Assembly (NCBI GenBank): GCA_964556185.1
Contig: CAZKVI010000003.1
Span: 2,089 to 66,088 of the forward strand
Reading direction: 5' to 3'
Length of the DNA: 64,000 nt
From: an uncultured Methanosarcinales archaeon
GTDB lineage: Archaea > Nanobdellota > Nanobdellia > Woesearchaeales > DSVV01
The notes beneath the pieces were generated by a model. The model had not been told where the DNA came from. It worked only from the letters and a program-made list of their open reading frames with translations, and did not search any database. Within the stretch, counting starts at the first letter, position 1. Each line of letters starts with the position of its first letter. Made by a program: the position numbers and the translations under genes. Positions 3,742 through 53,072 of the stretch are shown one piece after another.

Positions 3742-6700
3742 CTAAACCTTCTCACAACTTATCAAAACTTCCATCTTTTTAATCTTCTCTTTAGAACAAT
3801 CTTGTAATGTGTCTGCTTCAACACCAACAAAGATCTCAACAGCCCCACATTTGTCTTTAATATCATCTTGCCATTTGATTAACATATCAACATATGATTG
3901 AGTACTCTGCAAATGCAATTTAATATTATCTTTTTTCTCCAATCCTAACTTTTTCCTAAATGCTTGAACTCTTCGCATGACTTCTCTGGAATAACCTTCT
4001 GCATCTAAGTCAGGAGTTCTTGTTTTATCTAAAAACAATTGTCCATGTCTATATTCTGCTTCAACTAAGTTCTCAGGCAGTTCTTTCTCAATAATAAAGT
4101 GCTCTTTTTTCAAACTTACTTTATGTCCATCTAAAACAACAGTATGTGCACCTTTTTCAACATCTGCCAAGATTTTCTCGTCAGCAACTTGTATTAATCT
4201 AGTAATTATTTTAGGAACTAATTCACCATATTCTTGACCAATTGTTCTATGGTTTGGTTTCATTTTTATCTTAACTTCAGTACACTTATCAACTAATTCA
4301 ATATGTTTGACATTTGTTTGTTTTTTAATAGTTTCATCTAACTTAGTAATAGATTCAATAGTATCATTATCAGTAACTACAATCCTAATTTTACCAACAG
4401 GCCATCTTACTCCTAGTTGTGCTCTTTCACGAGCAGCTAAAATACTTTGAATTGTATCTTTTGCAATAGAAAACTCTTTTTCTAAAGAGTTATCAATAAA
4501 CTTTGCATCAAATTTAGGCCAATCAAACAAATGAATACTCTCAACCTCAAGATCAAAGTACTCTTTCAAATCTTGATACATTCTCTCAGCTATAAATGGA
4601 GAAACAATTGCAAACATTTTCAAATTCTCTAAAAATGTTTCAAATATAACATTAAATACAACTTGTTTTTGTTCTTCCAACCCAAGAGCTGCTTTCTCAC
4701 GAACCAATTGAATATATGTTCTTGATAATTCCATAAATATTTCTTCAACTTTCAAAGGAACTTCATTTATCTTATAACTATCCATTAATTCTGTTATTTC
4801 TTTAATACCAGAATGTAATTTTGAAATCATATACTCTTCTTCTTGTTCTAAACAATTCTTATCAATTCCAGTGAATTTCAAACCATTATTCTTAGCTAAA
4901 TCAATTATAAACTTGTGCAGATTCCAATACACACCTAAATTCTTATATTTTAATTTACAGTCATCAAAATTATAATTAATATCAATTCCAGGATTAGCTC
5001 CACCAATCATATAATATCTTAATGTGTCTGCTCCGTATTTATCAACAACTTCTTGAGGTAAAATATAATTACCAAGAGATTTACTCATCTTACGTCCCTG
5101 TGAATCTTGTACAAAACCATGCATGTAAACATTTCTAAAAGAAGGTTTTTCCATGCTTACCATAGAAGCAACATGTAATAAATTAAACCAACCTCTAATT
5201 TGATCTTTTCCTTCTAAAATAAAATCAGGTGGAAACAAATTCTTAAAATTCTCTTCTTTATGTGGATAATCCAAACAAATCCATGAAGTACAACCAGCAT
5301 CTACCCAAACATCTAAAATATCTGGAATTCTTTTTTTAACACCACCACAATCACATTTGATTGTTACTTCATCAATCCAAGGTTTATGTAATTTCTCTAC
5401 TTTTTGTCCTGATAACTTTTCTAATTCAGCAACATCACCGACGACAATATAATTATCACACTCTTCACATCTCCATACTGGTACTGGTGTTCCCCAGAAT
5501 CTTTGTTTTGTAATAGAATTGTCTCTTAAGTTTTCTAACCATGAATTAAAAGCATTATAAGCAGCTTGAGGTACCCATTTAATTTTATTATTCTCTTCAA
5601 TTAACTTTTCTTTCATATCATCTACTTTAAAGAACCATTGTTTTGTAGTTTTATAGACAACAGCTTCATGACATCTCCAACAATGTGCATAACTATGATT
5701 AGTTTTACTTTGTGCAATTAAAGTGCCATTCTCATCCATTAGTTCAACAAATTTCTTATCATCTTTCTTAGCAACTAAACCAGAGAACTTTGAATCATCC
5801 TTTGGATATGTGCCATTTTCATCAATAAGATTAAATGGTTTAATACCTTTTCTTACACATAATTCATAATCAGAATCCCCGCAACCAGGTGCAAAATGCA
5901 CTAAACCAGTACCATCATCTAAATGTACATATTCATCTGATAATAAAACTGTATAAATCTTATCTTGTGTTTTTCTTGCTTCTTTAATTTGAGGAAATGA
6001 ATTTTCAAAAGAAGGAATATATTCTTTGCCTTCTAATTTCTTTCCTTTGAATTCTTCAACAATTTCATAATCTTTTCCTGCTTTTAATTTAATAACTTCT
6101 TCTGCAAGGTCTTTTGCAACAATCCAATGTTCATCACCAACTTTACATTTAACATATTCAAAATCAGGATGTACAACAACTGCTAGATTAAAAGGAATTG
6201 TCCATGGAGTTGTTGTCCAAATGATTAAATAATCATTTTCAGTTCCTCTTAATTTAAATCTTAAATAAATAGAATCATCAGTAATATCTTGGTATTCTAA
6301 TTCATGCTTTGCTAATGCTGTTGCACACGAAGCACACCAAGTCATTGCTCTTTCTCCTTCATACAATCTTTTATTTTCATGTGCTTTTTTAATTAACCAC
6401 CATTCTCCTTCAATAAATTCTTTTGAAATAGGTTGGTAAGCATTTTCAAAGCCCATCCATACACCTAATCTAGTAAAATCCTTATTCATTACATGCATAT
6501 TTTCTATAGATAGTTTTTTACATTCTTCAATAAACTTAGCAACACCAAACTTCTTGATTCCTTCTTTTCCATTAATTCCTAGTTTCTTTTCAACTGCATG
6601 CGCTGTAGGTAATCCATGCATATCATAGCCAGCTCTATCCCAAACATTGAAACCAGCCATTCTTTTATATCTAAGAACCATATCTTTTAGTGATTTGTTC

Positions 6701-21227: not shown

Positions 21228-21545
21228 ATGGCAGACAATGATAAAGTATACGAAGCTATTGAAGTAGCAAAAGCTACTGGAAAAATTAGAAAAGGTACAA
21301 ATGAAGTTACAAAAGCAATTGAAAAAGGCAATGCAAAATTAGTTGCAGTTGCATCTGATGTTAATCCACCAGAAATTACAATGCATCTTCCTTTATTATC
21401 AAAAGAAAAAGGTGTTCCATGTTTTACAGTTGGAAATAGAGAAGAACTTGGAGCTGCTGCTGGTTTAGGAGTTTCTACAACTGCTGTTGCAATTGTTCAA
21501 GAAGGAGAAGCAAAAAACCTTATTGGAAGATTATCTAAAGAATAA
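21228..21545 (+). CDS. rpl7ae: 50S ribosomal protein L7Ae
   Basis: '[29 protein letters not shown]' matches L7Ae. SD 'ggaggt' lies upstream of ATG 21228. The listed ORF start at 21162 is an upstream extension. Confidence 0.9.
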
Positions 21546-21556
21546 GGTGTAATAAG

Positions 21557-21847
21557 ATGGCAGCAATAAAGAAAATGGTTAAAAAACCTGGCAAAGAAGA
21601 AGCCTCTGCAAAAGGTCAAGTTAATTTTTCTTATGCAGTTCCTGCAAAAGTTGAAGAAGTAATTGGCAGAACTGGATCAAGAGGAGAAGCTACTCAAGTA
21701 AGATGCAGGGTTTTAGATGGTCGTGATAAAAACAAAGTATTGAGAAGAAATGTTAAAGGTCCTGTTCAAAAAGATGATGTGTTAATGTTAAGGGAAACAG
21801 AAATCGAAGCTAGACCATTAACAAAAGCAGGAAGAGGACAAGGGTGA
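21557..21847 (+). CDS. rps28e: 30S ribosomal protein S28e (with N-terminal extension)
   Basis: '[51 protein letters not shown]' matches S28e. Confidence 0.85.
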
Positions 21848-21852
21848 TTATA

Positions 21853-22035
21853 ATGGTTAAATGTACTTTTTGTGCAAACGAATTCCCTAAAGGAACTGGA
21901 AAGATCTTTGTTAAAAAAGATGGAAAAATATTTTATTTTTGTTCAAGCAAATGCGAAAAAAGTCTCTTAAAATTAAAGAGAAATCCAAGAAAAACTTCAT
22001 GGACAGAAACATGGAGAAAAATAAAAAAGAAATAG
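21853..22035 (+). CDS. rpl24e: 50S ribosomal protein L24e
   Basis: 'MVKCTFCANEFPKGTGKIFVKKDGKIFYFCSSKCEK' matches L24e. Confidence 0.85.
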   Translation: MVKCTFCANEFPKGTGKIFVKKDGKIFYFCSSKCEKSLLKLKRNPRKTSWTETWRKIKKK

Positions 22036-22047
22036 GTGATGTTAATG

Positions 22048-22524
22048 ATTCAACAAACATTAGTTTTACTAAAACCTGATGCAGTCGAAAGAGGACTTAC
22101 AGGTAGAATAATTGATAGGTTTGAAACAGCTGGATTAAAACTTATAGCTATGAAAATGGTTTGGATTGATAAGGAGTTTTCAAAAAAGCATTACAAAGCT
22201 CACGTCGACAAACCTTTTTATGCAGGTCTTGAAGAATTTATTGTTTCAGGTCCAGTAGTTGCAATAGCTATTGAAGGTATTGAAGCTGTTGAACTTGTAA
22301 GAAAAATGGTTGGTGCAACAGAACCAAAAGCTGCTCAACCTGGTACAATTAGAGGAGATTTTTCACATCACTCTTATGGTTATGCTGACGAAAAAGGCAT
22401 AGCAATCAAAAACCTAGTTCATGCTTCTGGTAGCTTAGATGATGCTAAAGAAGAAATGAAAATTTGGTTTACAGAAGAAGAACTACATAAATATGATTTA
22501 GTTCATGAAAAACATACAAGATAA
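22048..22524 (+). CDS. ndk: nucleoside diphosphate kinase
   Basis: 'QQTLVLLKPDAVERGL', 'GATEPKAAQPGTIRGDF' and 'NLVHASGS' are present. SD 'aggtga' lies 9 nt before ATG 22048. Confidence 0.9.
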   Translation: MQQTLVLLKPDAVERGLTGRIIDRFETAGLKLIAMKMVWIDKEFSKKHYKAHVDKPFYAGLEEFIVSGPVVAIAIEGIEAVELVRKMVGATEPKAAQPGTIRGDFSHHSYGYADEKGIAIKNLVHASGSLDDAKEEMKIWFTEEELHKYDLVHEKHTR

Positions 22525-22549
22525 ACAAAAGAATTAGTGAGGTAGTAAA

Positions 22550-24718
22550 ATGGGAGAAAAGATGGTAGATAGGGTTACAAGAAGTATGAAGAACAAAGAA
22601 CAAATTAGAAATATTGCTATTTGTGCTCATATTGATCATGGTAAAACAACATTCTCAGATAACTTATTAGCAGGAGCAGGAATGTTGAGTGAAGAAATCG
22701 CAGGAAAAGCTTGTGTTCTTGATTTTCACGATGACGAACAAGAAAGAGGAATCACAATTGATTCTGCAAGTGTATCTATGGTTCACACTTTCAAAGAAAA
22801 AGATTACTTAATTAACTTAATTGATACTCCTGGTCACGTTGATTTTGGTGGAGACGTTACAAGAGCAATGCGTGCAGTTGATGGTGCAATTGTTTTAGTA
22901 GACGCTGTTGAAGGTGTTATGCCACAAACAGAAACAGTTCTAAGACAAGCATTAAAAGAAAGAGTTAAACCAATACTTTTCATTAATAAATCTGATAGAT
23001 TAATCAAAGAATTACAATTAACACCAGAACAAATGCAAGAAAAGTTTGTCAAAGTGATTACACATGTTAATAAATTAATCAAAGATATTGCAGGCGAAGA
23101 ACTTGGAAACAAATGGCAAGTTAATGTTCAAGACGGTTCTGTTTGTTTTGGATCTGCTTTCCACAATTGGGCACTTTCTATTGACTACATGCAGTCAAAA
23201 GGAATTTCTTTTAAAGATATTATTGATGCTTATGAAGCAGGCGAAGAAGCTTACAAAGAACTTGGAAAAAAAGCACCTTTGCATGAAGTTATCTTAAATT
23301 CTGTTATTACACATCTACCAAATCCAGATGAAGCTCAAAGATATAGAATTCCAAAGCTTTGGAGAGGAGATATGGAAAGTGAAGACGGAAAAGGATTAAT
23401 ATCATGTGATCCAAATGGCCCTTTATTTTTTATAATTACAAAAATTGTTGTTGATCCTCAAGCAGGAGAAATCTCTGCCGGTAGATTATTCTCAGGAACA
23501 ATGAAAAAAGGGACACCTGTTTACTTAAACAGAGCAAAGTGTAATTTAAGAGTACAACAAGTGTTTATTTACAATGGATCTAAAAGAGAAATTGTCGACG
23601 AGGTTCCAGCAGGAAACATTATTGGTGTAGCTGGATTAAAAGCAGCTCCTGGAGAAACAATTACATTAGAACCTTCAGAACCTTTTGAAGAAATTAAACA
23701 CATTTTTGATCCTGTTGTTACAAAAGCAATTGAAGCAGCAAGACCAAGCGATCTTCCAAAATTAATTGAAGTCTTAAGAATGGTTCAAAAAGAAGATCCA
23801 ACAATTAAAATTGAAATTAATGAAGAAACAGGCGAACATTTAATGAGTGGAATGGGTGAACTACACCTGGAAGTAATTGAAAATAGAATTAAGACAGAGA
23901 AAAATGTAGAAGTAAAGACTTCACCACCTGTTGTTGTTTACAGAGAAACCATTACAAAAACATCTGAAATATTTATGGGTAAATCCCCTAATAAACACAA
24001 CCATTTATTCTTTAGTGTGGAACCAGTTCCACAAGCTGTAGCTGATGCAATTAAGTCTGGCGACATCCCATCTGGAAGAATAAAGAAAAAAGACATTGAA
24101 TTAAGAGACAAATTGGTTGATTTAGGAATGGACTCTAAAATGGCTTCACAAGTTAAAAATATTCATGAAGGAAATATGTTATTTGAAACCACACGTGGTC
24201 AAGTACATATTGGAGAAATCATGGAAATGGTTAACGATATGTTTGAAGATGTTATGCATGCAGGTCCAGTTGCTAGAGAACCATGTACAGGAGTTTTAGT
24301 GAAATTTGTTGATTGTAAATTACATGAAGATGCTATTCACAGAGGTCCTGCACAAATGTACCCAGCAATTAGAGAAGGTATTAGAGAAGCAATGGCACAT
24401 GCAAAACCAATGATCTTTGAACCAGTACAAACCCTTCAATTCGAGGCTCCTGAAGAATTTATGGGAGAAGTTTCCAAATTAATCTCTAACAAAAGAGGAC
24501 AACTATTAGACATGCAACAAGATGCAGGTACAGTAGTTGTAAAAGGTAAAATGCCAGTTGGAGAAATGTTTGGGTTAAGTAATGATCTTAGATCTGCAAC
24601 AGGGGGAAGAGGAAGCTCTTCTTTAGTTGATCAGACATTCGAAAGACTACCTGATGAATTACAGCAAAAGATCATAAAACAAATTAGAGATAGAAAAGGG
24701 CTAACAGATGCTCAATAA
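22550..24718 (+). CDS. fusA: translation elongation factor 2 (aEF-2)
   Basis: G domain motifs 'AHIDHGKTT', 'DTPGHVDF' and 'NKSDR' are present, as is the diphthamide region 'HEDAIHRGPAQ'. Confidence 0.95.
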   Translation: MGEKMVDRVTRSMKNKEQIRNIAICAHIDHGKTTFSDNLLAGAGMLSEEIAGKACVLDFHDDEQERGITIDSASVSMVHTFKEKDYLINLIDTPGHVDFGGDVTRAMRAVDGAIVLVDAVEGVMPQTETVLRQALKERVKPILFINKSDRLIKELQLTPEQMQEKFVKVITHVNKLIKDIAGEELGNKWQVNVQDGSVCFGSAFHNWALSIDYMQSKGISFKDIIDAYEAGEEAYKELGKKAPLHEVILNSVITHLPNPDEAQRYRIPKLWRGDMESEDGKGLISCDPNGPLFFIITKIVVDPQAGEISAGRLFSGTMKKGTPVYLNRAKCNLRVQQVFIYNGSKREIVDEVPAGNIIGVAGLKAAPGETITLEPSEPFEEIKHIFDPVVTKAIEAARPSDLPKLIEVLRMVQKEDPTIKIEINEETGEHLMSGMGELHLEVIENRIKTEKNVEVKTSPPVVVYRETITKTSEIFMGKSPNKHNHLFFSVEPVPQAVADAIKSGDIPSGRIKKKDIELRDKLVDLGMDSKMASQVKNIHEGNMLFETTRGQVHIGEIMEMVNDMFEDVMHAGPVAREPCTGVLVKFVDCKLHEDAIHRGPAQMYPAIREGIREAMAHAKPMIFEPVQTLQFEAPEEFMGEVSKLISNKRGQLLDMQQDAGTVVVKGKMPVGEMFGLSNDLRSATGGRGSSSLVDQTFERLPDELQQKIIKQIRDRKGLTDAQ

Positions 24719-24738
24719 TTCTTTCTTTATTTTTCTTA

Positions 24739-26331
24739 TTATTTTTTCAATTGCTCAGATTTAGCAAAATCTCTATTTGCTTCATCTTGTCTATCCATCC
24801 TTTCTAGTGCACAACCTCTATTGTTATAACATGTAGCCAAGAATTCATCTGAAACGTCTTCTGCTTTATCAATTACAATTGAATATTGTTCAAATGCATT
24901 TTCATTATCTCCTTTTTTAAGGTAAGCATATCCTAATCCTGATATTGCATCATAATCATCTGGTTCTAATTTTAATTGTTCAAATCTACACTCAATAGCT
25001 AAATCATATTCTTCTAAGCTTACAGCTGCAACTGCAGCATTATTATAAACAGCTTTTTGTGTTCCTTCCTCTAATTCATTTCTAACTTCTATTAATATTT
25101 TATAATGACGTAGTGCATCTTCTTTATTTCCAAGTTCTCCATTAGCATAAGCTACACCAAAACGTGCATCATGATTATTTGGATCAAAAGCAAGTAAATA
25201 ATAACCATCTACAATAGCACCTTTCCAATCACCGACTTCTCTTCTTGCACCAAAACTATTAGTTCGTATATACATACAATTAGGAAATAAAGAACTTGCT
25301 CTATTCAAACAATCAGAAGCTTTTTCCATACATTGCTCTTTTTCACCTTCTTCAGCAATATCAGATCTTACTATCCATTCATATCCTAAGTTCCCATACA
25401 TAATTCCAGCAATTTGTTTTTTATTAAGACCTTTCATATATCCTCCTCTTTCTAATTCATCTCTACCTAAACCAAATTCTTCAATATATTCTTCATCACT
25501 CCTTGCAATTCCTGCAGTAGTTTCCCAATTCACATGACTACCATCAAATTTCCCCCATCTTACAAACATATGTTCTGGGCCTAATACAGCTTCAATAGGG
25601 AAATTAAGTACTTGCCCAATTGCAAGATAAATCATTGACATATTGTCACAATCCATTTGGTAAAATCCTTGACTATATTTTTCTATTTTTCTTCTTCTTG
25701 AACCTCTTCTATATTCACTAAGGAAAGAGAAATAACCAGAAGGAGATTGAGTACGTAAAATATGATCATTTATGAAATCATTTACTTCTTCTGATGCTTC
25801 TGTAAATTCATCTCCTTCAAAATCAATAATTTTTTGAGCATTTCCTTCATCTTTTAGATATTCTACAATTTCTCCTTCTTGTTTTGTAAATGCTGAACCT
25901 AGTCTATTATTTTCTTTATAAACAACATTAAATATATCAGAAAGAGCTTCATCAATCCATCCCATAATCTTTCTTATGTCATCTAGATCATATGTTTCTA
26001 TCATTTCACTACTAAAAGCTGAGTCAACTCCTTCCTCACCAAGCCTTGAACCTAAAGATACTCTTTCTGGGCTTGCAATTTCTGCTTTATATTTTGTTCT
26101 AATTTCATGAATAACAGAATCTAAGAAATCATAATTTTCTTGAGTTACTTCAAAACCTTGTAGATGTTCAGCATCTAAAAATGAATGAGCATATGTATTA
26201 TATCTAGAATCAAATCCAGATCTTTCTCTCTCAATTGCCAAGGCTGTAACAGGTGCAAAACTAGTCACAATTGCTGCCAAACCAGCTGCAGCTCCACTAG
26301 CACCCAAAAACCACCTTCTACTCCTTTCCAT
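24739..26331 (-). CDS. Tat-signal protein with a SirB1-like transglutaminase-fold domain and C-terminal TPR repeats
   Basis: 'MERSRRWFLGASGAAAGLAAIV' carries a twin-Arg motif. 'DCDNMSMIYLAIGQVLNFPIEAVLGPEHMFVRW' shows the Cys...His spacing of Transglut_core2. The C-terminal ~200 aa are TPR-like. Confidence 0.55.
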   Translation of the reverse strand: MERSRRWFLGASGAAAGLAAIVTSFAPVTALAIERERSGFDSRYNTYAHSFLDAEHLQGFEVTQENYDFLDSVIHEIRTKYKAEIASPERVSLGSRLGEEGVDSAFSSEMIETYDLDDIRKIMGWIDEALSDIFNVVYKENNRLGSAFTKQEGEIVEYLKDEGNAQKIIDFEGDEFTEASEEVNDFINDHILRTQSPSGYFSFLSEYRRGSRRRKIEKYSQGFYQMDCDNMSMIYLAIGQVLNFPIEAVLGPEHMFVRWGKFDGSHVNWETTAGIARSDEEYIEEFGLGRDELERGGYMKGLNKKQIAGIMYGNLGYEWIVRSDIAEEGEKEQCMEKASDCLNRASSLFPNCMYIRTNSFGARREVGDWKGAIVDGYYLLAFDPNNHDARFGVAYANGELGNKEDALRHYKILIEVRNELEEGTQKAVYNNAAVAAVSLEEYDLAIECRFEQLKLEPDDYDAISGLGYAYLKKGDNENAFEQYSIVIDKAEDVSDEFLATCYNNRGCALERMDRQDEANRDFAKSEQLKK

Positions 26332-26569
26332 TAAATCAAGGAATAAATTGGCTATATATAATCCTTTCTATAGCGTATTATTTCTAAGTAAATACGCTTT
26401 ATTCAGCTAAAAAACCCAAAAAAAGCCCATTTTCAGCTTTAGAATACGTAACCTTTTTAAATCACTGAAATTTTATCCCTAATACATAAAAAGAGGCAAA
26501 GAAGCCTTTAAATCATGAATAGGGCTCAATTAAGGCTCAAAATCAAGAAAACAGTTGGAGGAATAGAGA

Positions 26570-27862
26570 ATGGCAGATAAAAAAATCCATATAAACCTTG
26601 TTTTTATCGGACACGTCGATCACGGTAAATCCACTACAGTAGGAAGACTACTTTTCGATTCAGGAAATATTGATGAAGCAGCAATGAGAAAGTTAAAAGA
26701 CAAAGCACAAGAGCTTGGAAAAGGTGGCTTTGAATTCGCTTTTGTCATGGACAACTTAAAAGAAGAAAGAGAAAGAGGAGTTACAATTGATCTAGCTCAC
26801 AAAAAGTTTGAGACAGACAAATACTACTTCACTATTATCGATGCACCAGGTCACAAGGACTTTATCAAGAACATGATTACAGGAGCATCACAAGCAGATG
26901 CAGGTGTTTTAGTTGTAGCTGCAAATGATGGTGTAAATGCACAAACAAAAGAACACGTCTTCTTATCCAAAACACTTGGAGTTAACCAATTAATTGTTGC
27001 AGTTAACAAAATGGATATCTCAGGTGTTGACTATGCTGAAGCAAAATTCAATTCAGTTCAAGAAGAAGTAGGAACACTTTTGAAATCAGTAGGTTATAAA
27101 GCAGATGAAATTCCATTTGTAGCAATCGCTTCTTTACCAGGAGATAATGTTGTTAAGAAAACAGACAAAATGCCATGGTATAAAGGAAAATCATTATTAG
27201 AAACAATCAATGATCTTAAGGAACCTGAAAAACCAACAGAACTTCCACTAAGACTTCCAATCCAAGATGTTTATAACATCACAGGTATTGGTGTTGTCCC
27301 AGTTGGAAGAGTTGAAACAGGTGTACTAAAAGTTGGACAAAAAGTTGTAGCAATTCCAGGAAGAGAAGGAAAAGGAGTTCCAGGCGAAGTTAAATCTATT
27401 GAGATGCATCACGAACAATTACAAGAAGCTGTTCCAGGTGACAACTGCGGATTTAATGTTCGAGGCTTTGGAAAAACAGACATTGCAAGAGGCGATGTTA
27501 TTGGTCCAGCAGATAATGCACCAACATTAGCAACAGAATTCACAGCACAAATTGTTGTGTTAAATCATCCATCTGTTGTAACTGTCGGTTACACACCAGT
27601 ATTCCACATACATACAGCTCAAGTTGCATGTCAAATTACAGCAATTGAGAAAAAGCTAAATCCAGCAACTGGAGAAGTTTTAGCAGAAAATCCTGACTTC
27701 ATCAAAAATGGTGACGCAGCAATTGTTAAAATTAAACCAGTACAACCTTTAGTAATTGAAACACAAAAGGAAATTCCACAACTTTCAAGATTCGCAATCA
27801 GGGATTCCGGTGCAACAGTTGCAGCAGGTATGTGTACAGCTTTAACTAAAAAGGAACTTTAA
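26570..27862 (+). CDS. tuf: translation elongation factor 1-alpha (aEF-1A)
   Basis: '[10 protein letters not shown]', 'DAPGHKDF' and 'NKMD' are present. SD 'ggagga' lies upstream. Confidence 0.95.
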
Positions 27863-29236: not shown

Positions 29237-29356
29237 CGGGCCCACGGGGATTCGAACCCCGGGCCTATGGCTGTCTGTGCGTAAGCAAAGACCCAGTGGA
29301 TCTTTGATCCTAACGCGTAAGAGGCCACCGCTCTAACCAGGCTGAGCTATGAGCCC
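29237..29356 (-). tRNA. tRNA-Lys(CUU) with a 45-nt canonical (37/38) intron
   Basis: Acceptor GGGCTCA/TGGGCCC. D arm GCTC-AGCCTGGTTA-GAGC. Anticodon stem GTGGC/GCCAT with loop CTCTTA|A. T arm CGGGG-TTCGAAT-CCCCG. G73. Confidence 0.75.
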
Positions 29357-40091: not shown

Positions 40092-42887
40092 ATGTCAATA
40101 CAACCTACAAAGAAAAACCCAATATTCTCATTTATTATACCGATCTTAATTGTAATTTTCTTTTCATCAACTAAATTAATCAATTTAGTAACAGATTATT
40201 GGTGGTTCGATGCATTAGGTTTCAAAGAAATCTTTATGATCAGCTTAAAAGCTAAATTAACATTATTCATAGCAGCAGCATTATTCTTCTTCATATTCGC
40301 ATTAATTAATCTAACTATCTCAACCTATCTAAACAAGAAAATAACAATGCCAAAAGGTGTTAAACCAATACCATTTAGATTCAAACTTTTATTAACATCT
40401 TTAGTGGCTTTATTTGTTGGTTTTGTATCTTACAATTCTTGGTTTAATGTTTTGCAATACTTAAATCAAACACCTTTTAATTTACAAGATCCAATATTTT
40501 TTAGAGATGTTGCATTCTATGTGTTTTCATTGCCATTTTTCTTATTTGCCTGGAAATTTTTAATGGCAACTTTAGTAATTACAACAATTATTGTAGCTAT
40601 AGATTATTTACAAGCAATATTCTTTTCATTACTTAAGAAAAAACATGACAAACCACAAGTTGTTGATGCAAACGGAATCCCAAGAAGTACTGGTCAAATA
40701 AACATAGCTGAAATATTCAAAAACATAAAACAATATGCATTAGTACATCTAGCTTTCTTAGGTTCATTATTTTTCATTTTATTAGCTGTAAAACATTATT
40801 TAACAAAATTCTCAATTATGTATTCAGAAGCAGGAATTGTCGTCGGAGCCGGTTATACAGATGTAGTAGTTTTTGTCCCAATTGTAAAATTACTTACAAT
40901 CTTAGCAGTCATTGTGTCTGTATTATTCTTTGTCTGGATTTTTGTAATATCAAAATCACAAAGATTAAAGAAAAGACATATTTTAGCTTACTTCGTAATC
41001 CTATATTTGATATTTTTCTTTATAGCACCAACAGTAATCCCAGGTGTAATTCAAGCATTAAAAGTTGATCCAAATGAAATCAATCTAGAAAAACCTTATA
41101 TTGAAAACAATATTGAATTTACAAAAATTGCTTACGGTTTAGAAGATGTTGAAGAAACAGATTTCTCAGTAGAAATGTCATTAACACCAGAAATCTTAGA
41201 AGAAAATCCAGAAACAATTGATAATGTAAGAATATTAGATTGGAGACCATTAACACAAACATATAAACAAACACAAGAAATAAGGTTGTATTATGATTTA
41301 GCAAATATTGATATTGATAGATATACAATTGAAGGAAAATATACAGAAGTCATGCTCTCACCAAGAGAAATTAATCAATATCAAATCATAGATAATGCAC
41401 AAACATGGGTTAATTTACACATGGTTTATACTCATGGTTATGGTGTTGTAGTAAGTCCTGTTAATAAAGTCACAGAACAAGGAATGCCTGAGTATCTTGT
41501 ACAAGATATTCCATCTGTGTATAATGTTGATGAACCTTCTTTAATTGTAGAAACACCACAAATATATTATGGAGAAATAGACAATGATTTTATCTTAACA
41601 AACACATTAACTCCAGAATTTGATTATCCAAAGGGAAACACAAATGAATACCTGCATTATGATGGAAATGGCGGAATTGTTCTCGACACTTTCTGGAAAA
41701 AAGCATTAATGGCATTAAGATTCATGGATATTAAGATATTATTATCAGATGATTTAACTATAGAAAGTAAGATAATGTTTACAAGAGCAATCCAAGACAG
41801 AATTGCAAAATTAACACCATTCTTAATGCTTGATTATGATCCTTATTTAGTTATCAATGATGGAAAATTATATTGGATACAAGATGCTTACACTTATACA
41901 GGGAACTTCCCATACTCTGAAAAATACAACATGATTAATTACATGAGGAACTCTGTGAAAATTGTAGTCGATGCATACAATGGAGATGTAACTTATTATA
42001 TTGTTGACACAGAAGATCCATTAATTGCAACATATGCAAAAATCTTCCCAGATCAATTTAAGTCATTCGAAGAATTCCCAGAAGGATTAATTGAACATAT
42101 TAGATATCCTGAAAACTTATTTGATATACAAGCTTACATTTATAGTACATATCATATGAATGATCCAACTGTCTTTTATAATAAAGAAGATGCATGGGAT
42201 ATTCCTACAGAAGTCTATGGTACTGGTCAACAAATATATGTTGAACCATATTATATTATTATGAAATTACCAGGAGAAGAATCTGAAGAATTTGTTTTAA
42301 TGACTTCATTTACTCCAATAAGTAAAGATAATATGATTGCATGGCTAGCAGCAAGATCTGACGGAGATAATTATGGTAAACTATTGTTATACAAATTCCC
42401 AAAAGATAAATTAATCTATGGTCCATTACAAATAGAAGCTAAATTTGACCAAGACTCAGAAATATCTCAGCAATTAACACTTTGGTCTCAACAAGGTTCT
42501 AGTGTTACAAGAGGTAACTTATTAGTAATTCCAATTGATGATAGTATTTTATACATTGAACCACTTTATATCCAAGCAGAAACAGGTCAATTGCCAGAAT
42601 TAAAAAGAGTTTTAGTTTCAGATGGAGAAAGAGTAGTAATGGAACAATATTTATCAGATGCATTAGAAATTCTATTCGGAAAATCATCAACAGTTGAAGA
42701 TACAGAAGACGACAGGGAATATACTGGAGATGTAGAATACTCAGGCGATGAAACAGATGAAGAATTAATGCAATCTGCTCAAGATTACTATGATTCAATA
42801 TTAGAATCTATGGAATCTGGTGATTGGGTAGAATTTGGAGAAAACTTTGACAATCTTGGCCAAGTTTTGAATGAATTGAATAATTAA
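40092..42887 (+). CDS. UPF0182-family large membrane protein
   Basis: The N-terminus has multiple TM helices with 'LVTDYWWFDALGF'. A large soluble C-terminal domain follows. Confidence 0.65.
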   Translation: MSIQPTKKNPIFSFIIPILIVIFFSSTKLINLVTDYWWFDALGFKEIFMISLKAKLTLFIAAALFFFIFALINLTISTYLNKKITMPKGVKPIPFRFKLLLTSLVALFVGFVSYNSWFNVLQYLNQTPFNLQDPIFFRDVAFYVFSLPFFLFAWKFLMATLVITTIIVAIDYLQAIFFSLLKKKHDKPQVVDANGIPRSTGQINIAEIFKNIKQYALVHLAFLGSLFFILLAVKHYLTKFSIMYSEAGIVVGAGYTDVVVFVPIVKLLTILAVIVSVLFFVWIFVISKSQRLKKRHILAYFVILYLIFFFIAPTVIPGVIQALKVDPNEINLEKPYIENNIEFTKIAYGLEDVEETDFSVEMSLTPEILEENPETIDNVRILDWRPLTQTYKQTQEIRLYYDLANIDIDRYTIEGKYTEVMLSPREINQYQIIDNAQTWVNLHMVYTHGYGVVVSPVNKVTEQGMPEYLVQDIPSVYNVDEPSLIVETPQIYYGEIDNDFILTNTLTPEFDYPKGNTNEYLHYDGNGGIVLDTFWKKALMALRFMDIKILLSDDLTIESKIMFTRAIQDRIAKLTPFLMLDYDPYLVINDGKLYWIQDAYTYTGNFPYSEKYNMINYMRNSVKIVVDAYNGDVTYYIVDTEDPLIATYAKIFPDQFKSFEEFPEGLIEHIRYPENLFDIQAYIYSTYHMNDPTVFYNKEDAWDIPTEVYGTGQQIYVEPYYIIMKLPGEESEEFVLMTSFTPISKDNMIAWLAARSDGDNYGKLLLYKFPKDKLIYGPLQIEAKFDQDSEISQQLTLWSQQGSSVTRGNLLVIPIDDSILYIEPLYIQAETGQLPELKRVLVSDGERVVMEQYLSDALEILFGKSSTVEDTEDDREYTGDVEYSGDETDEELMQSAQDYYDSILESMESGDWVEFGENFDNLGQVLNELNN

Positions 42888-43204
42888 TCAACTTTCATAT
42901 CTTTTAATTTCTTATTTATTGTAATTTCAATTAAATCTAAATTAATATTTTCATAACCTTTAGATATTCTTAATTGTAACTCTGCATTTACTTTTCTGTT
43001 TAATTTATTCTTAATATTTTCAATATCTTTATCTGGCAATACTGTATAAGTTGGATTTATCTTCTCTCTGTATTTCATAGAAATATCAAAACTATTCTTA
43101 AGTTCTTTATCATAATGTTTTCTAATGTTGTCGTCATCAATGGCTTTAGATAATATTTCATGGATTATTGAATTTGATAAGTTACCAATAAATAAGTCTA
43201 TCAA
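42884..43204 (-). CDS. hypothetical protein (non-ATG start, uncertain)
   Basis: The ORF begins at TTG. It is preceded by the palindromic promoter module at 43207-43300. Confidence 0.3.
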   Translation of the reverse strand: MIDLFIGNLSNSIIHEILSKAIDDDNIRKHYDKELKNSFDISMKYREKINPTYTVLPDKDIENIKNKLNRKVNAELQLRISKGYENINLDLIEITINKKLKDMKVD

Positions 43205-43206
43205 TT

Positions 43207-43300
43207 TATACTAAAAGTGATTAATTTTCGTACAAATTAATCACTTTTGTATATACCAGAGTGTAAAATAATTTGACTTTATTTTACACTTTAAGTATAT
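43207..43300. repeat. palindrome-rich intergenic module, copy 1
   Basis: 'tatactAAAAGTGATTAATTTtcgtacAAATTAATCACTTTTgtatata...AGTGTAAAATAAtttgactTTATTTTACACTttaagtatat'. It shares its ends and core with 50041-50116. Confidence 0.7.
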
Positions 43301-43302
43301 TT

Positions 43303-44100
43303 CTATTTTGAACCACTTTTAATCCCTCTCAAAATCTTTGTTTCTAATTTCTTATACAATTTCTTGTATTTTCTAAGAAATCTCTTTTTATCACTTATTA
43401 TGTTCTCTTTTATTTCTTTGTATGCATTCTTTCCGAACAATTTATCAATTTCCTTGTCAACTTTATCTTTACTTATCTTATTTTTATTTAAAAACAATGA
43501 AATAGAAACAACATTCCTTAACATTTCATATTTTTCATTACCATTTAACATATTAAAGTTTTCAATTAATAATTTGCTTTTTAATAAGTGCAAATCTAAT
43601 ATTTTATAATTAATTTTATGTTTTGTTTTATAGATAAATCTTTTTCTAGTAATACATTTACTTAACATTGTTTGATACAATGGATCTGTATTCAAACCAT
43701 TAATTAAGGCTTTATTATTTATTAGAATTATGTGCGGTTTAATACCTAATTTATTTTCTAATTCTTCTTCAAGATATTTCTCATCAATTTGATCATCCAT
43801 AATAACTAATACATCAATATCATTAAAATGAAACCCTTTTTCTAAAAATGAACCTGTTATGATTAGGTTATCATAAGTTTTGAATATTTTATCTATATTC
43901 TCAAATATTTGGCTGATTATATTAACTTTTACAGGCTCTAAGAAGTCAATATTATAGAAAAATGGTTTCTCAATAGGTCTTTCTAACTCTTGTAATGGTT
44001 TTATGGTTACATGACTACCTACTTCAAACCCAAGCCTTCTTTTTGGGATGTATATTTGATCCATCCTACTTCCTTTACTAATCTTACTTATTAGTTTCAT
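43303..44100 (-). CDS. Pol-beta-superfamily nucleotidyltransferase-domain protein
   Basis: 'LIITGSFLEKGFHFNDIDVLVI' has the GS...DxD motif. The N-terminal 'IYIPKRRLGFEVGSHVTIKPL' is AbrB/SpoVT-like. Confidence 0.5.
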   Translation of the reverse strand: MKLISKISKGSRMDQIYIPKRRLGFEVGSHVTIKPLQELERPIEKPFFYNIDFLEPVKVNIISQIFENIDKIFKTYDNLIITGSFLEKGFHFNDIDVLVIMDDQIDEKYLEEELENKLGIKPHIILINNKALINGLNTDPLYQTMLSKCITRKRFIYKTKHKINYKILDLHLLKSKLLIENFNMLNGNEKYEMLRNVVSISLFLNKNKISKDKVDKEIDKLFGKNAYKEIKENIISDKKRFLRKYKKLYKKLETKILRGIKSGSK

Positions 44101-44140: not shown

Positions 44141-44443
44141 TTATTTCAGGCTTTTATTATTTAATCTAGCTTTTCTAATTTTAATAAGCTTCTTAATCTT
44201 CTTATTCCATCTTTTAATATCTAAAAATTTAGCAAAACAAGATTTATCACTTCTTAATTTTGTTCTGTCATCATAACCTCTAAATCCATCTCTATAATTT
44301 GTCCAATCATCATACATTTCTTTTGGTTCTAGACATTCTTCAATTAGTTTACTCTTTTTTAACTTAATGGTTGAGTTAGGAGTAACTCTACCACTATGTC
44401 TTCTTTTCTTTCTGTTCATTTTATTAGAATACCCTAATGACAA
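44141..44443 (-). CDS. small basic protein, unknown
   Basis: 100-aa K/R-rich ORF. Confidence 0.35.
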   Translation of the reverse strand: MSLGYSNKMNRKKRRHSGRVTPNSTIKLKKSKLIEECLEPKEMYDDWTNYRDGFRGYDDRTKLRSDKSCFAKFLDIKRWNKKIKKLIKIRKARLNNKSLK

Positions 44444-44556
44444 GGCTTTTACCTTGCCATTTTAAGATTATATCTATTAAGGGTAGCAGCACATGGCTTT
44501 GCATCTTTTCTCACCATCTGTCCAAAAGTACATGACTTATTTTTATTGTTCTTGGA

Positions 44557-44904
44557 CTATGAGTTAATTGTTGGAGAAGTTTTACTAATCTCTTCAATAG
44601 ATTTTAAAGCTTCTTCAATTGCTTTAATCTTTTCTTCAGAGATCTCTTCTTTTTCCACAATCCTTTGTTTCATATTATCATATTCTTGTATGGCTTTCTC
44701 AATCTCTCTTTCTTTATTCCTTTTTTCTCTTTTTATGTCTTCTTCAATATCTTTGTTCCAGTTTTCTAAATCAATCTTTAATTCTTCTATTTGTTGTTCT
44801 TTGTGTTTTAATTTTTCCTTAAATGTTGACTTGGTAGTCATGATGTCAAGTTTTCTTCCTGTAAGTCTTTCCACAATACTATATCTTGATTGACTTTCTG
44901 TCAT
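44557..44904 (-). CDS. coiled-coil protein, unknown
   Basis: 115 aa. SD GAGGTGA lies upstream. The gene begins 30 nt after the 3' end of the unusual tRNA. Confidence 0.4.
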   Translation of the reverse strand: MTESQSRYSIVERLTGRKLDIMTTKSTFKEKLKHKEQQIEELKIDLENWNKDIEEDIKREKRNKEREIEKAIQEYDNMKQRIVEKEEISEEKIKAIEEALKSIEEISKTSPTINS

Positions 44905-44934
44905 GTTCTCACCTCATTTTTTTACTGTTAATAG

Positions 44935-45070
44935 CGCCAGGGACGGGAGTTTCAGTAACTTCAAAGAGTTACACCCCATCAGTTGACATTTGAACCCACG
45001 TGACATTCAGGGGACGAATGTCAACTGGATCATCAGTCCAGCGTCTTGAGCCAGACTCGACCACCCTGGC
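44935..45070 (-). tRNA. unusual class-II (long variable arm) tRNA with anticodon loop CUGAUGA (formal anticodon GAU) and a 40-nt insertion in the T arm
   Basis: Acceptor GCCAGGG/CCCTGGC with G73. Ser/Leu-type D arm 'TGGTCGAGTCTGGCTCAAGAC'. Anticodon arm CTGGA-CTGATGA-TCCAG. Variable hairpin TGACATTC-GTCCCCT-GAATGTCA (8 bp). T arm GTGGG-TTCAAAT-[40 nt]-CCCGT. Confidence 0.55.
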
Positions 45071-45119
45071 CTCGCCAACAGTAAAGTTTATATACTTGTT
45101 TGAATATACAATTAATTAA

Positions 45120-52469: not shown

Positions 52470-53072
52470 ATGCAGTGGAAAAAACTATCTCCATACATAT
52501 TATCTTTCTTTGTGTTACTTACAGCAGTTTATGCAAGAACTAGGTTTCCAACAGGAGAATTAAGAGATGTTATGAATGTATTTGGAGATATTTACAACCA
52601 AGCACCATATTTAGTTGATGCATTAGTATTATTAATTATATTTGTACCTTTAGCAAGGAAGATCCTAGGAGAAAGACTAGGTAAAGTCCCAGCAACAGGC
52701 TTAGGATTTTTATTAGTGCTTTCAGTTATTGTTTCAGAAGCAAAATTCGATTATAGTATTATTAGGGATTTTAGTATTCCAGCAGTTATAATCTTATTAT
52801 CAATGTTTGGAATTAGTTTATTTGTTATGTTAAAACAATTTGATGCAAATACTTGGTTAGCAGTCAGTGCTGGTTGGGTAGCTGTTGTCGTAGTATCTTA
52901 TTTTGCAGTCCCAGATGTTGTTGAAATGATACAAAGAGATTATGAAGTCATTTGGTGGTTTTTAATTGTATTAACTGGATTTTTTATACTTGCATTTGTT
53001 TTTAGTATGTTCTTTGGCGGTGGCGGAGGGGGCCATCATGAACCAGCAGCTCCAGCAGCACCTCATCCTTAA
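52470..53072 (+). CDS. multi-pass membrane protein with a Gly/His/Pro tail
   Basis: Signal or first TM helix, then 'IYNQAPYLVDALVLLIIFVPLARK'. It ends 'GGGGGGHHEPAAPAAPHP'. It is a paralog of the next gene. Confidence 0.5.
   Translation: MQWKKLSPYILSFFVLLTAVYARTRFPTGELRDVMNVFGDIYNQAPYLVDALVLLIIFVPLARKILGERLGKVPATGLGFLLVLSVIVSEAKFDYSIIRDFSIPAVIILLSMFGISLFVMLKQFDANTWLAVSAGWVAVVVVSYFAVPDVVEMIQRDYEVIWWFLIVLTGFFILAFVFSMFFGGGGGGHHEPAAPAAPHP

Follow-up and report, generated by a model that had tools for sequence, protein, structure and literature searches.

A family of paired hairpin repeats, probably MITE/REP-like, in Woesearchaeota and Nanoarchaeota, and its two decayed copies in a 64-kb archaeal window

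Introduction

Are two similar, palindrome-rich modules in the intergenic DNA of an AT-rich archaeon (31% G+C, tRNAs with introns) the binding sites of a regulator, or are they repeats that have moved into the genome? The question is raised by two stretches of the window, by which we mean the whole 64-kb stretch of DNA analysed here. Copy 1 lies 4 nt past the stop codon of ORF 43303-44100 and 3 nt short of the TTG start codon of ORF 42884-43204, both on the minus strand, and copy 2 lies between tRNA-Ala (50269-50342, minus strand) and tfe (49376-49879, minus strand; Pfam TFIIE_alpha, PF02002). A first-pass annotation, whose account of these gene neighbours holds, had offered two readings of the pair, namely sites for a shared local repressor of the wHTH or AbrB type, or a MITE-like element carrying an outward promoter. 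Here we argue that the modules are, very probably, old and decaying copies of a non-autonomous MITE/REP-like element that is abundant in related Woesearchaeota and Nanoarchaeota.

Results

Two related intergenic modules

Copies 1 and 2 are direct repeats on the plus strand, and their alignment has 78% column identity overall, or about 90% if one 16-nt indel is set aside. They have three blocks in common, each of which is found in these two places and nowhere else in the 64 kb; 0.01-0.05 occurrences are expected and none of 100 shuffled sequences reached the same count, which confirms that these are two related intergenic modules at the places proposed for them. Folded as single-stranded DNA and compared with shuffled sequences, copy 1 has a z-score of -8.4 (-22.8 kcal/mol) and copy 2 one of -7.5. 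Both modules are identical to those of the window in six strain contigs that carry the exact TFE or 265-aa proteins. The palindromes described for copy 2, AAAAGTGATTAATCACTTTT and CACTTTTGTATATACAAAAGTG, were both found, as was the distal 12-bp hairpin of copy 1 (AGTGTAAAATAA/TTATTTTACACT). The 15-bp inverted repeat of copy 1 (AAAAGTGATTAATTT/AAATTAATCACTTTT) is present too, but the 16-nt expansion from which it was thought to arise is not an expansion: the long form matches the consensus of the family described below, so that the 16 nt of copy 1 are ancestral and copy 2 carries a deletion.

Four palindromically arranged CACTTTT half-sites upstream of two same-strand genes, and HTH (50896-51297) and AbrB/MazE (51577-51843) genes no more than 2 kb from copy 2, are the features that speak for operators, at which one repressor encoded nearby, of the wHTH, ArsR-like or AbrB kind, would co-regulate ORF 42884-43204 and tfe. 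One strand of that argument was the recurrence of the GATTAATC core in a toxin-antitoxin palindrome at 51855-51870, and this link counts against the operator reading, as it is a matter of chance: three occurrences in the window compare with 2.6 expected from composition. The palindrome itself sits upstream of an AbrB/MazE-ParE pair.

A dispersed family of hairpin doublets

Further copies were sought in the GTDB species genomes with the pattern CTAAAAGTG-N(0-30)-CACTTTTGTATATAC, which gave 38 loci in five genomes, 25 of them in JAGVYH01 and 9 in JACQSP01 (both Woesearchaeota MAGs) and the remainder in Nanoarchaeota/Nanoarchaeia MAGs, and in metagenomes with a stem-free pattern, which gave at least 120 loci. 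Since most units, on account of a bulged T, escape a palindrome finder that allows no gaps, a folding-based unit finder was used instead, and it was run on 165 loci comprising 1.19 Mb. It recovered 362 hairpin units in 212 arrays (119 doublets, 88 singles, 3 triplets and 2 quadruplets), and at least 166 non-redundant arrays from Woesearchaeota and Nanoarchaeota MAGs and metagenomes were left once overlapping contigs had been removed. The module is thus far from confined to the two places in the window. Within single genomes we counted at least 37 arrays in the fetched DNA of MAG JAGVYH01 (about 1 Mb) and at least 12 in JACQSP01, so that the dozens of copies of these relatives stand against two decayed copies in the 64 kb of the window. 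The viral contigs and the plasmid and phage collections that we scanned held no copies.

A single unit, read in the forward direction (F), consists of TATAC, a bulged T, AAAAG, a stem of 9-12 bp, a loop centred on CGAAC, the complementary stem, CTTTT and GTATA. The canonical element of about 93 nt joins an F unit and a reverse (R) unit, inverted head-to-head, through a common central TATATA, and can be written TA/TAC-T-AAAAG-stemA-CGAAC-stemA'-CTTTT-GTATATAC-AAAAG-stemB-GTTCG-stemB'-CTTTT-A-GTA/TA. Doublets measure 91-97 nt and units 44-50 nt, and none contains an ORF. Every one of the 69 FR doublets is bounded by terminal inverted repeats of 11-13 bp, TATACTAAAAG(TG)...(CA)CTTTTAGTATA. The two units of one doublet differ in their stems (A = TGCAAAATAAT, B = TGATTAATTT), and the stems of other doublet subfamilies are quite different again (CACAAAATAAT/GCAATTAATTT, TCCTTAGCTT/GGAATTAGTTT and CGGAAATGAAA/CCAGAATTAG). 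The foot TATAC-T-AAAAG is conserved in 105 of 105 distinct units, a figure that is partly a product of ascertainment because at each locus the foot of one unit was prescribed by the search pattern; the loop and one bulged T are conserved as well. The order of the units is equally strict: in 69 doublets the unit that comes after F is R, RF doublets number zero, and an F unit follows another only in a nested FFRR array. The arrays that lie outside the selection imposed by the search patterns agree, with three FR against no RF.

State of the window copies

Measured against this family, copy 1 is a full-length doublet with one intact and one decayed unit, and copy 2 a shortened one (Table 1); read on the minus strand, both run from unit A to unit B. 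Unit B of copy 1, TATAC-T-AAAAG TGATTAATTT tcgtac AAATTAATCA CTTTT GTATA, corresponds to the 15-bp inverted repeat mentioned above and is identical to a unit variant found nine times in relatives. Unit A of copy 1, which corresponds to the distal 12-bp hairpin, has lost the conserved foot (AAAAG to CAGAG, CTTTT to CTTTA) and has an altered loop. The sequence of copy 2 is identical across three strain contigs; the 16-nt deletion has removed the hairpin tip of its unit B, leaving AAAAGTGATTAATCACTTTT, and the stem of its unit A contains two non-Watson-Crick positions. A possible solo remnant overlaps the stop codon of ORF 52470-53072.

Table 1. Features of the hairpin-doublet family in the window, with the evidence for each
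Feature	Position	Strand	Evidence
Copy 1, full-length but partly decayed doublet	43207..43299	.	nhmmer family profile, 63 bits, E = 9e-18
Copy 1 unit B, intact	43207..43253	+	unit HMM, 41 bits, E = 1.7e-11
Copy 1 unit A, decayed	43252..43299	-	consensus comparison; unit HMM only E = 3
Copy 2, decayed doublet, oriented like copy 1	50041..50115	.	nhmmer, 40.8 bits, E = 8e-11
Copy 2 unit B remnant	50041..50071	+	alignment to copy 1 and family
Copy 2 unit A, decayed	50070..50115	-	orthologous unit at L084 4675-4723
Empty target site AGTATATATG, directly 3' of tRNA-Ala	50262..50271	.	pairwise alignment with L084 4867-4966
Possible solo unit-arm remnant TATACTAAAAGTAATTAA	53069..53086	-	2-mismatch match; unit HMM E = 0.46 (weak)

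A contig of a sister lineage, L084, which is 88-94% identical to the window over tfe, HIT and neighbouring genes, allows the history of copy 2 to be followed. At the orthologous site L084 has kept unit A alone; the remnant of unit B is absent, the site is 28 nt shorter, and the junction bears a TTT microhomology. The foot of the remaining unit, TATATAC/GTATATA, has changed from C-G to T-A on both sides. Given that L084 retains the orthologous unit A, copy 2 must be older than the split between the window lineage and L084, and the alignments indicate that it is being eroded by deletions in the two lineages. The L084 contig starts 84 nt from copy 1, whose site thus falls outside the comparison. 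Both window copies carry mutations or a deletion and are probably relics that can no longer move.

Stems that vary and stay complementary

To describe how the hairpins change, 55 distinct units were aligned over the 18 base pairs of their common stem. Paired cells make up 93.2% of this alignment as against 77.8% in shuffles, and changes on both sides were seen in 10 of the 18 pairs, amounting to 141 cells (46 in shuffles). The covariation score of 0.363 compares with 0.091 in shuffles, none of 500 of which reached it, and with 0.04-0.08 when the register was slid by 1-3 columns. The pairs that vary most include every one of the four Watson-Crick types, and even the foot covaries (AAAAG/CTTTT, AAACG/CGTTT, AAATG/CATTT). 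Of the 17 mismatches at the five pairs with the greatest variation, 3 are G·U, which is about its chance share and carries a slight bias, as the unit finder forbade G·U. Compensated changes that do not favour G·U imply that what is maintained is Watson-Crick complementarity on DNA, rather than a fixed sequence or an RNA-style helix, and the strictly Watson-Crick stems together with the conserved loop and bulged T suggest that the DNA is recognised in its folded form.

Strong predicted hairpins and covariation are also what a family of small non-coding RNA genes encoding a double-hairpin RNA would display. Such a family is nevertheless most improbable here, given that G·U pairs are not favoured, that the element is nearly symmetric on its two strands and takes no preferred strand relative to its neighbours, and that it undergoes the insertions, deletions and nesting described in this paper; moreover, a search of Rfam at gathering and E-value thresholds matched no relevant family.

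Filled and empty sites

Mobility is best seen at sites that are occupied in one genome and vacant in another. The 3' flank of tRNA-Ala in the window reads AAAAGAA-AGTATATATG-GACTC and is empty, whereas L084 carries at this place a 90-nt doublet of another subfamily that has TATATA on both sides and folds as two hairpins (z = -9.4). The difference may be an insertion or a precise deletion, since no outgroup fixes its direction; L088, which was considered as an outgroup for this site, is not syntenic. A second set of sites is provided by another repeat family of the relatives, element-2, of about 135 nt. Its hairpin loop GGTTATAAACC is intact, and thus empty, in L010/L157, L072 and L124, and in L023, L045 and L078 doublets of three different subfamilies have been inserted at the same TATA. 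The element can also accommodate itself: the four-unit array of L009, F(B')-F(X)-R(Y)-R(A), is an X/Y doublet lodged within the central TATATA of an A/B doublet. The X/Y subfamily nested in L009 is the one inserted in L084.

TA is present on both sides of all 69 FR doublets and is accompanied by additional TA repeats in 58%, which points to TATA or TATATA as the preferred target. The net gain in both filled/empty pairs is the core plus three TA. Two accounts fit this gain to the same degree, a TAC...GTA element that duplicates TA and an asymmetric element that goes in after TA and duplicates nothing. As TA and TATA are palindromic, a TA duplication is not formally separable from TA ends that belong to the element itself. 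Taken together, terminal inverted repeats, dispersal in many copies, filled and empty sites and nested insertion bear out the MITE-like reading of the modules.

Several other candidates for a presence/absence comparison were set aside. Indels between MAG and metagenome contigs at 100% identity (86, 84 and 172 nt, among others) consist of unrelated sequence and are probably differences of assembly or curation; at the place where window 21240-27375 and L014 are syntenic, another segment of 1.7 kb occupies the would-be empty site; and L029 and L089 are too diverged for a filled/empty call. We likewise rejected the idea that the two copies are att sites of an integrated element, with repeats flanking 6.8 kb by tRNA genes: the repeat occurs genome-wide, and the interval, which contains tfe, HIT and tRNAs, has no integrase.

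Position relative to genes

None of the first 53 copies lies inside an ORF, and of the 124 arrays that were placed only 2 coincide with a called ORF, both of these ORFs being dubious, in DNA that is 82% coding. By type of intergenic region, 76 arrays are tandem, 25 convergent and 21 divergent, roughly as expected from the 58%, 16% and 26% that these types contribute to intergenic base pairs, respectively; about 20% of arrays thus lie between convergent genes. Relative to the genes beside them, arrays run from A to B in one direction about as often as in the other (about 14 to 12), and the neighbours in relatives are ordinary genes, among them those for ATP synthase A, ribosomal protein L44e, RimK, TFB and a histidine kinase. 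Distances to start codons are broad and without a sharp peak. A putative outward promoter carried by the element is not favoured.

These observations leave the operator reading with very little credence. Hundreds of copies lie beside unrelated genes, 25 arrays being between convergent ones; the stems vary freely with compensation, unlike a sequence-specific operator; and the supposed operator in unit B of copy 2 has been deleted in the sister lineage L084 while tfe is conserved. A module that is dispersed in dozens of copies per genome across related DPANN archaea, with no preferred orientation, is not the binding site of a neighbouring repressor, and the proposal of shared wHTH/AbrB sites finds no support. 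The position of the copies upstream of ORF 42884-43204 and tfe is probably incidental and a regulatory role unlikely.

A more general service to the host has to be weighed, in which arrays spread by transposition would have been kept as bidirectional terminators or RNA stabilisers, or else as portable TATA boxes or sites of DNA architecture. Every unit is indeed a strong hairpin followed by TTTT in either orientation, TATA stands at both ends and at the centre of the element, 33 of 127 stop-side distances fall between -30 and +20 nt of the stop codon, with 13 arrays supplying or overlapping the stop, and the C-G to T-A change in the orthologous L084 unit was compensatory. The clustering at stop codons, however, may arise from TAA and TAG offering TA targets and from 3' ends tolerating insertion, and 21 arrays lie between divergent genes. 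The absence of a peak in start-codon distances likewise speaks against this kind of retention, as does the contrast between the two decayed copies in 64 kb of the window genome and the dozens in relatives; decay by deletion of the orthologous copies in the window lineage argues against strong selection. Archaeal termination is, to our knowledge, not known to require hairpins. We thus consider host retention of this kind unlikely, and the mobile, MITE/REP-like element probably has no dedicated host function.

What might move the element

The family has the hallmarks of a MITE in being short and non-coding, in its terminal repeats, its many copies and its presence/absence with apparent TA duplication; the hallmark that did not come to light is a cognate autonomous IS. 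In the 1.19 Mb of flanks, which come from partial genomes, we encountered neither a transposase beside the element nor an autonomous partner that shares its ends. Clustering of 1,236 ORFs from all loci returned housekeeping or tandem paralog families only, with no multi-copy transposase family, and a search for an autonomous element of the form F...gene...R gave one F...R pair, without an ORF. A screen for HUH motifs yielded one IS200-like Y1 gene, at L103 2775-3251 (PF01797, 51.8 bits), which falls below the NCBIfam IS200 cut-off and matches IS200 models and no RAYT model. It has its own, unrelated, G+C-rich 3' hairpin, and no units flank it, the closest lying at a distance of 1.4-2.2 kb; truncated or contig-end copies elsewhere make it a multi-copy gene.

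The doublet inserts at TA, preferably TATA or TATATA, and behaves as if duplicating TA; it can lodge in the TATATA at the middle of a second doublet, and copies decay via small deletions. On the reading that we prefer, a transposase encoded elsewhere in the genome would move it in trans. To judge from the terminal repeats and the TA duplication, that enzyme may be an IS630/Tc1-like DDE protein, and the conserved hairpin, bulge and loop suggest that a folded DNA strand might be recognised. For a classical MITE moved by DDE cut-and-paste, neither a conserved loop and bulge nor complementary stems would be required.

The mechanistic variant that takes up these folded features keeps the mobility and changes the enzyme: in the manner of REPINs, a HUH/Y1 protein, either RAYT-like or an IS200/IS605 TnpA acting in trans, would recognise the units as folded single-stranded DNA and insert them 3' of a TATA-type target without true duplication. 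Several observations accord with it, namely the strict Watson-Crick covariation of the stems with hardly any G·U, the conservation of the extrahelical T, the loop and the sequence of the hairpin foot, the arrangement of units as inverted doublets in REPIN fashion, and the occurrence of a Y1 transposase in several copies within the same population; an asymmetric TAC...GTATA following TA would also explain the filled and empty sites equally well. Against this stand the Y1 gene of L103 itself, which has no flanking units, an unrelated hairpin and scores that miss both the IS200 cut-off and the RAYT models, as well as the lack of the GTAG/CGTC tag of known REPs. In addition, the stems within a doublet differ, so that its units are incapable of the mutual pairing seen in REPIN arms, and the symmetry of the TA flanks, present in 69 of 69 doublets, is more suggestive of a TA duplication. 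On balance we regard this variant as improbable, albeit with an appreciable chance of being right.

Discussion

The two modules that gave rise to this study are best explained as relics of a non-autonomous element, and the family to which they belong may usefully be set beside three known kinds of small mobile repeats. The Correia elements (CREE/NEMIS) of Neisseria are non-coding palindromic repeats of about 100-150 bp with terminal inverted repeats, whose 26-bp ends form one long hairpin; they insert at TA with apparent TA duplication, have TATA-like ends and reach dozens to hundreds of intergenic copies, and we know of no transposase for them that has been identified in the host genome. The hairpin doublets are similar in being small, TA-flanked palindromic repeats with TATA-bearing ends and no visible transposase. 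They differ in having two hairpin units that are independent of each other, whose loop and bulge are conserved and whose stems covary freely, and also in their DPANN host and their unrelated sequence. Among archaea, the SM1-SM4 MITEs of Sulfolobus are tied to known IS partners, and haloarchaeal MITEs and PATEs to IS200/IS605 ends. Our elements resemble such archaeal MITEs as short, non-autonomous, intergenic sequences with terminal inverted repeats; unlike the Sulfolobus MITEs and the PATEs, they are built of modular hairpin units and had no partner in the 1.19 Mb of flanks from relatives.

The REP, BIME and REPIN sequences of Proteobacteria are extragenic imperfect palindromes mobilised by RAYT proteins of the Y1/HUH type (PMC3116915, PMC3479197, PMC3733652). 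With these the doublets share a conserved foot and bulge, inverted doublets and mosaics, high copy number, decay with vertical persistence, and stem complementarity, whereas their foot is TATAC and not GTAG/CGTC, their units show no mutual pairing, their sites are TA-flanked and no RAYT flanked by units was seen. Here we speculate that the doublets might be an archaeal counterpart of REPIN-RAYT systems, acting through folded single-stranded DNA and a HUH/Y1 enzyme, which has persisted vertically in tiny DPANN genomes and has perhaps been co-opted as portable TATA-box or terminator punctuation of a compact genome; as a whole this proposal appears to us rather unlikely. The literature that we searched contained no report of REPIN-RAYT systems in archaea.

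A census of prokaryotic MITEs lists one Woesearchaeal genome at 105 MITEs per Mb, without describing them (PMC11602168), and these are probably the hairpin-doublet family or a similar one. No paper describing the family turned up in the literature searched, nor any description of a modular hairpin architecture, of TATA targeting, of nesting or of an element that targets TATA and regenerates a TATA box at each of its ends. The hairpin doublets are thus a new and well-defined family of small palindromic non-autonomous repeats in a lineage for which such elements have barely been described.

The consequence for the window itself is modest; the family as such is a warning against taking its palindromes for operators. 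With its consensus, its TA/TATA target and its subfamilies now defined, the family offers a marker for strain typing, and it helps to account for breaks in Woesearchaeota MAG assemblies, in which contigs such as L084 end beside repeats. DPANN genomes are among the smallest and most gene-dense of cellular genomes, and yet relatives of the window genome carry dozens of 93-nt selfish hairpin elements, which makes the family a tractable case in which to study how non-autonomous archaeal elements move when no partner transposase is visible.

Additional repeats and mobile elements

In Woesearchaeota relatives, another dispersed repeat of about 135 nt, here called element-2, occurs both without an insert and with the hairpin doublet (a MITE/REP-like repeat of about 93 nt composed of two inverted hairpin units) inserted in it, and it is not present in the 64-kb window. 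Element-2 is closed by a long helix (AGTAAACTTCCCA/TGGGAGGTTTACT), with two hairpins of the form CnCAGC-NNN-GCTGnG and a T-run at the terminus. Folded as RNA, it gives z-scores of -4.8 and -5.1, and Rfam returned no match to it; element-2 may represent either a gene for a small RNA or a further MITE. The doublet-rich Woesearchaeota population also holds several copies of an IS200-like Y1 (HUH) transposase gene, which has a G+C-rich 3' hairpin of its own and is flanked by no hairpin units.

Within the window, a 72-nt direct repeat (81% identical) was observed, of which the first copy forms the 3' end of ORF 45767-46648 (...GYNNGYADGLLKLEE) and the second lies as an orphan fragment 3' of ORF 47556-48176, where it is probably a gene remnant. 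The perfect palindrome AGTAAGATTAATCTTACT, situated just upstream of an antitoxin and a toxin gene, is a plausible autoregulatory operator for this pair. The first-pass annotation had seen in it the core of the window's two doublet copies, but it is unrelated to the hairpin-doublet repeat family; a homologue of the antitoxin, at 895-1158 of L003, adjoins a hairpin doublet.

Positions of the features discussed (L-numbers, loci or contigs from Woesearchaeota/Nanoarchaeota MAGs and metagenomes matching the doublet search patterns)
Feature	Position	Strand	Remark
tRNA genes	window 29237-29356; 48650-48763; 48773-48897		114-125 nt; Rfam match
72-nt direct repeat	window 46596-46667; 48257-48328
G+C-richer stretch	window 49880-49995	-	about 115 nt
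tRNA-Ala gene	window 50269-50342		intron-less
ParE-type toxin gene	window 51341-51583
AbrB/MazE-type antitoxin gene	window 51577-51843
Palindrome	window 51853-51872		perfect, 18 nt
Insert in tRNA-Ala gene	L084 4976-5021		46 nt
Element-2 without insert	L010 1690-1830 (= L157); L072 ~4320-4450; L124 ~2660-2800
Element-2 with doublet inserted	L023 4714-4931; L045 1071-1297; L078 827-1045
Y1 transposase gene	L103 2775-3251	-	Pfam PF01797, 51.8 bits
Y1 transposase gene fragments	L051 5219-5473; contig ends of L091, L026, L076

Comparison with close relatives

The G+C-richer stretch separates copy 2, the decayed doublet between tRNA-Ala and tfe, from the tfe start codon. It is kept in the sister-lineage contig L084 with 1-nt indels and is therefore non-coding, and the 45-aa ORF 49870-50007 is probably spurious. 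Possible identities of the stretch are a small RNA and a structured 5' leader; Rfam gave no match for it, and its fold z-score is only -2.5.

Several indels of gene scale separate the window from L084. The latter lacks a 1.6-kb segment (window 44144-45733) that encodes three small ORFs, one of them the wHTH ORF 45225-45725, and has an additional 265 nt (80-aa ORF) between HIT and tfe (3746-4012) and an additional 685 nt (5637-6320) corresponding to window 50894/50895. GTDB MAG contigs match their JGI metagenome counterparts at 100% identity apart from clean internal gaps (L002/L085, L021/L162, L006/L081, L036/L090, L020/L075); these gaps span 84-172 nt of ordinary sequence, affect one of the two contigs in every pair, and look like assembly or curation differences and not biology.

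As the three Rfam-only tRNA genes of the window, two of them in tandem between copy 1 (the other decayed doublet) and copy 2, received no call from ARAGORN, they presumably contain introns. The tRNA-Ala gene of L084 carries an insert, whereas that of the window does not, and with the insert it was called by neither ARAGORN nor Rfam. This insert is possibly an archaeal tRNA intron of non-canonical type that one of the two closely related lineages has acquired or lost.
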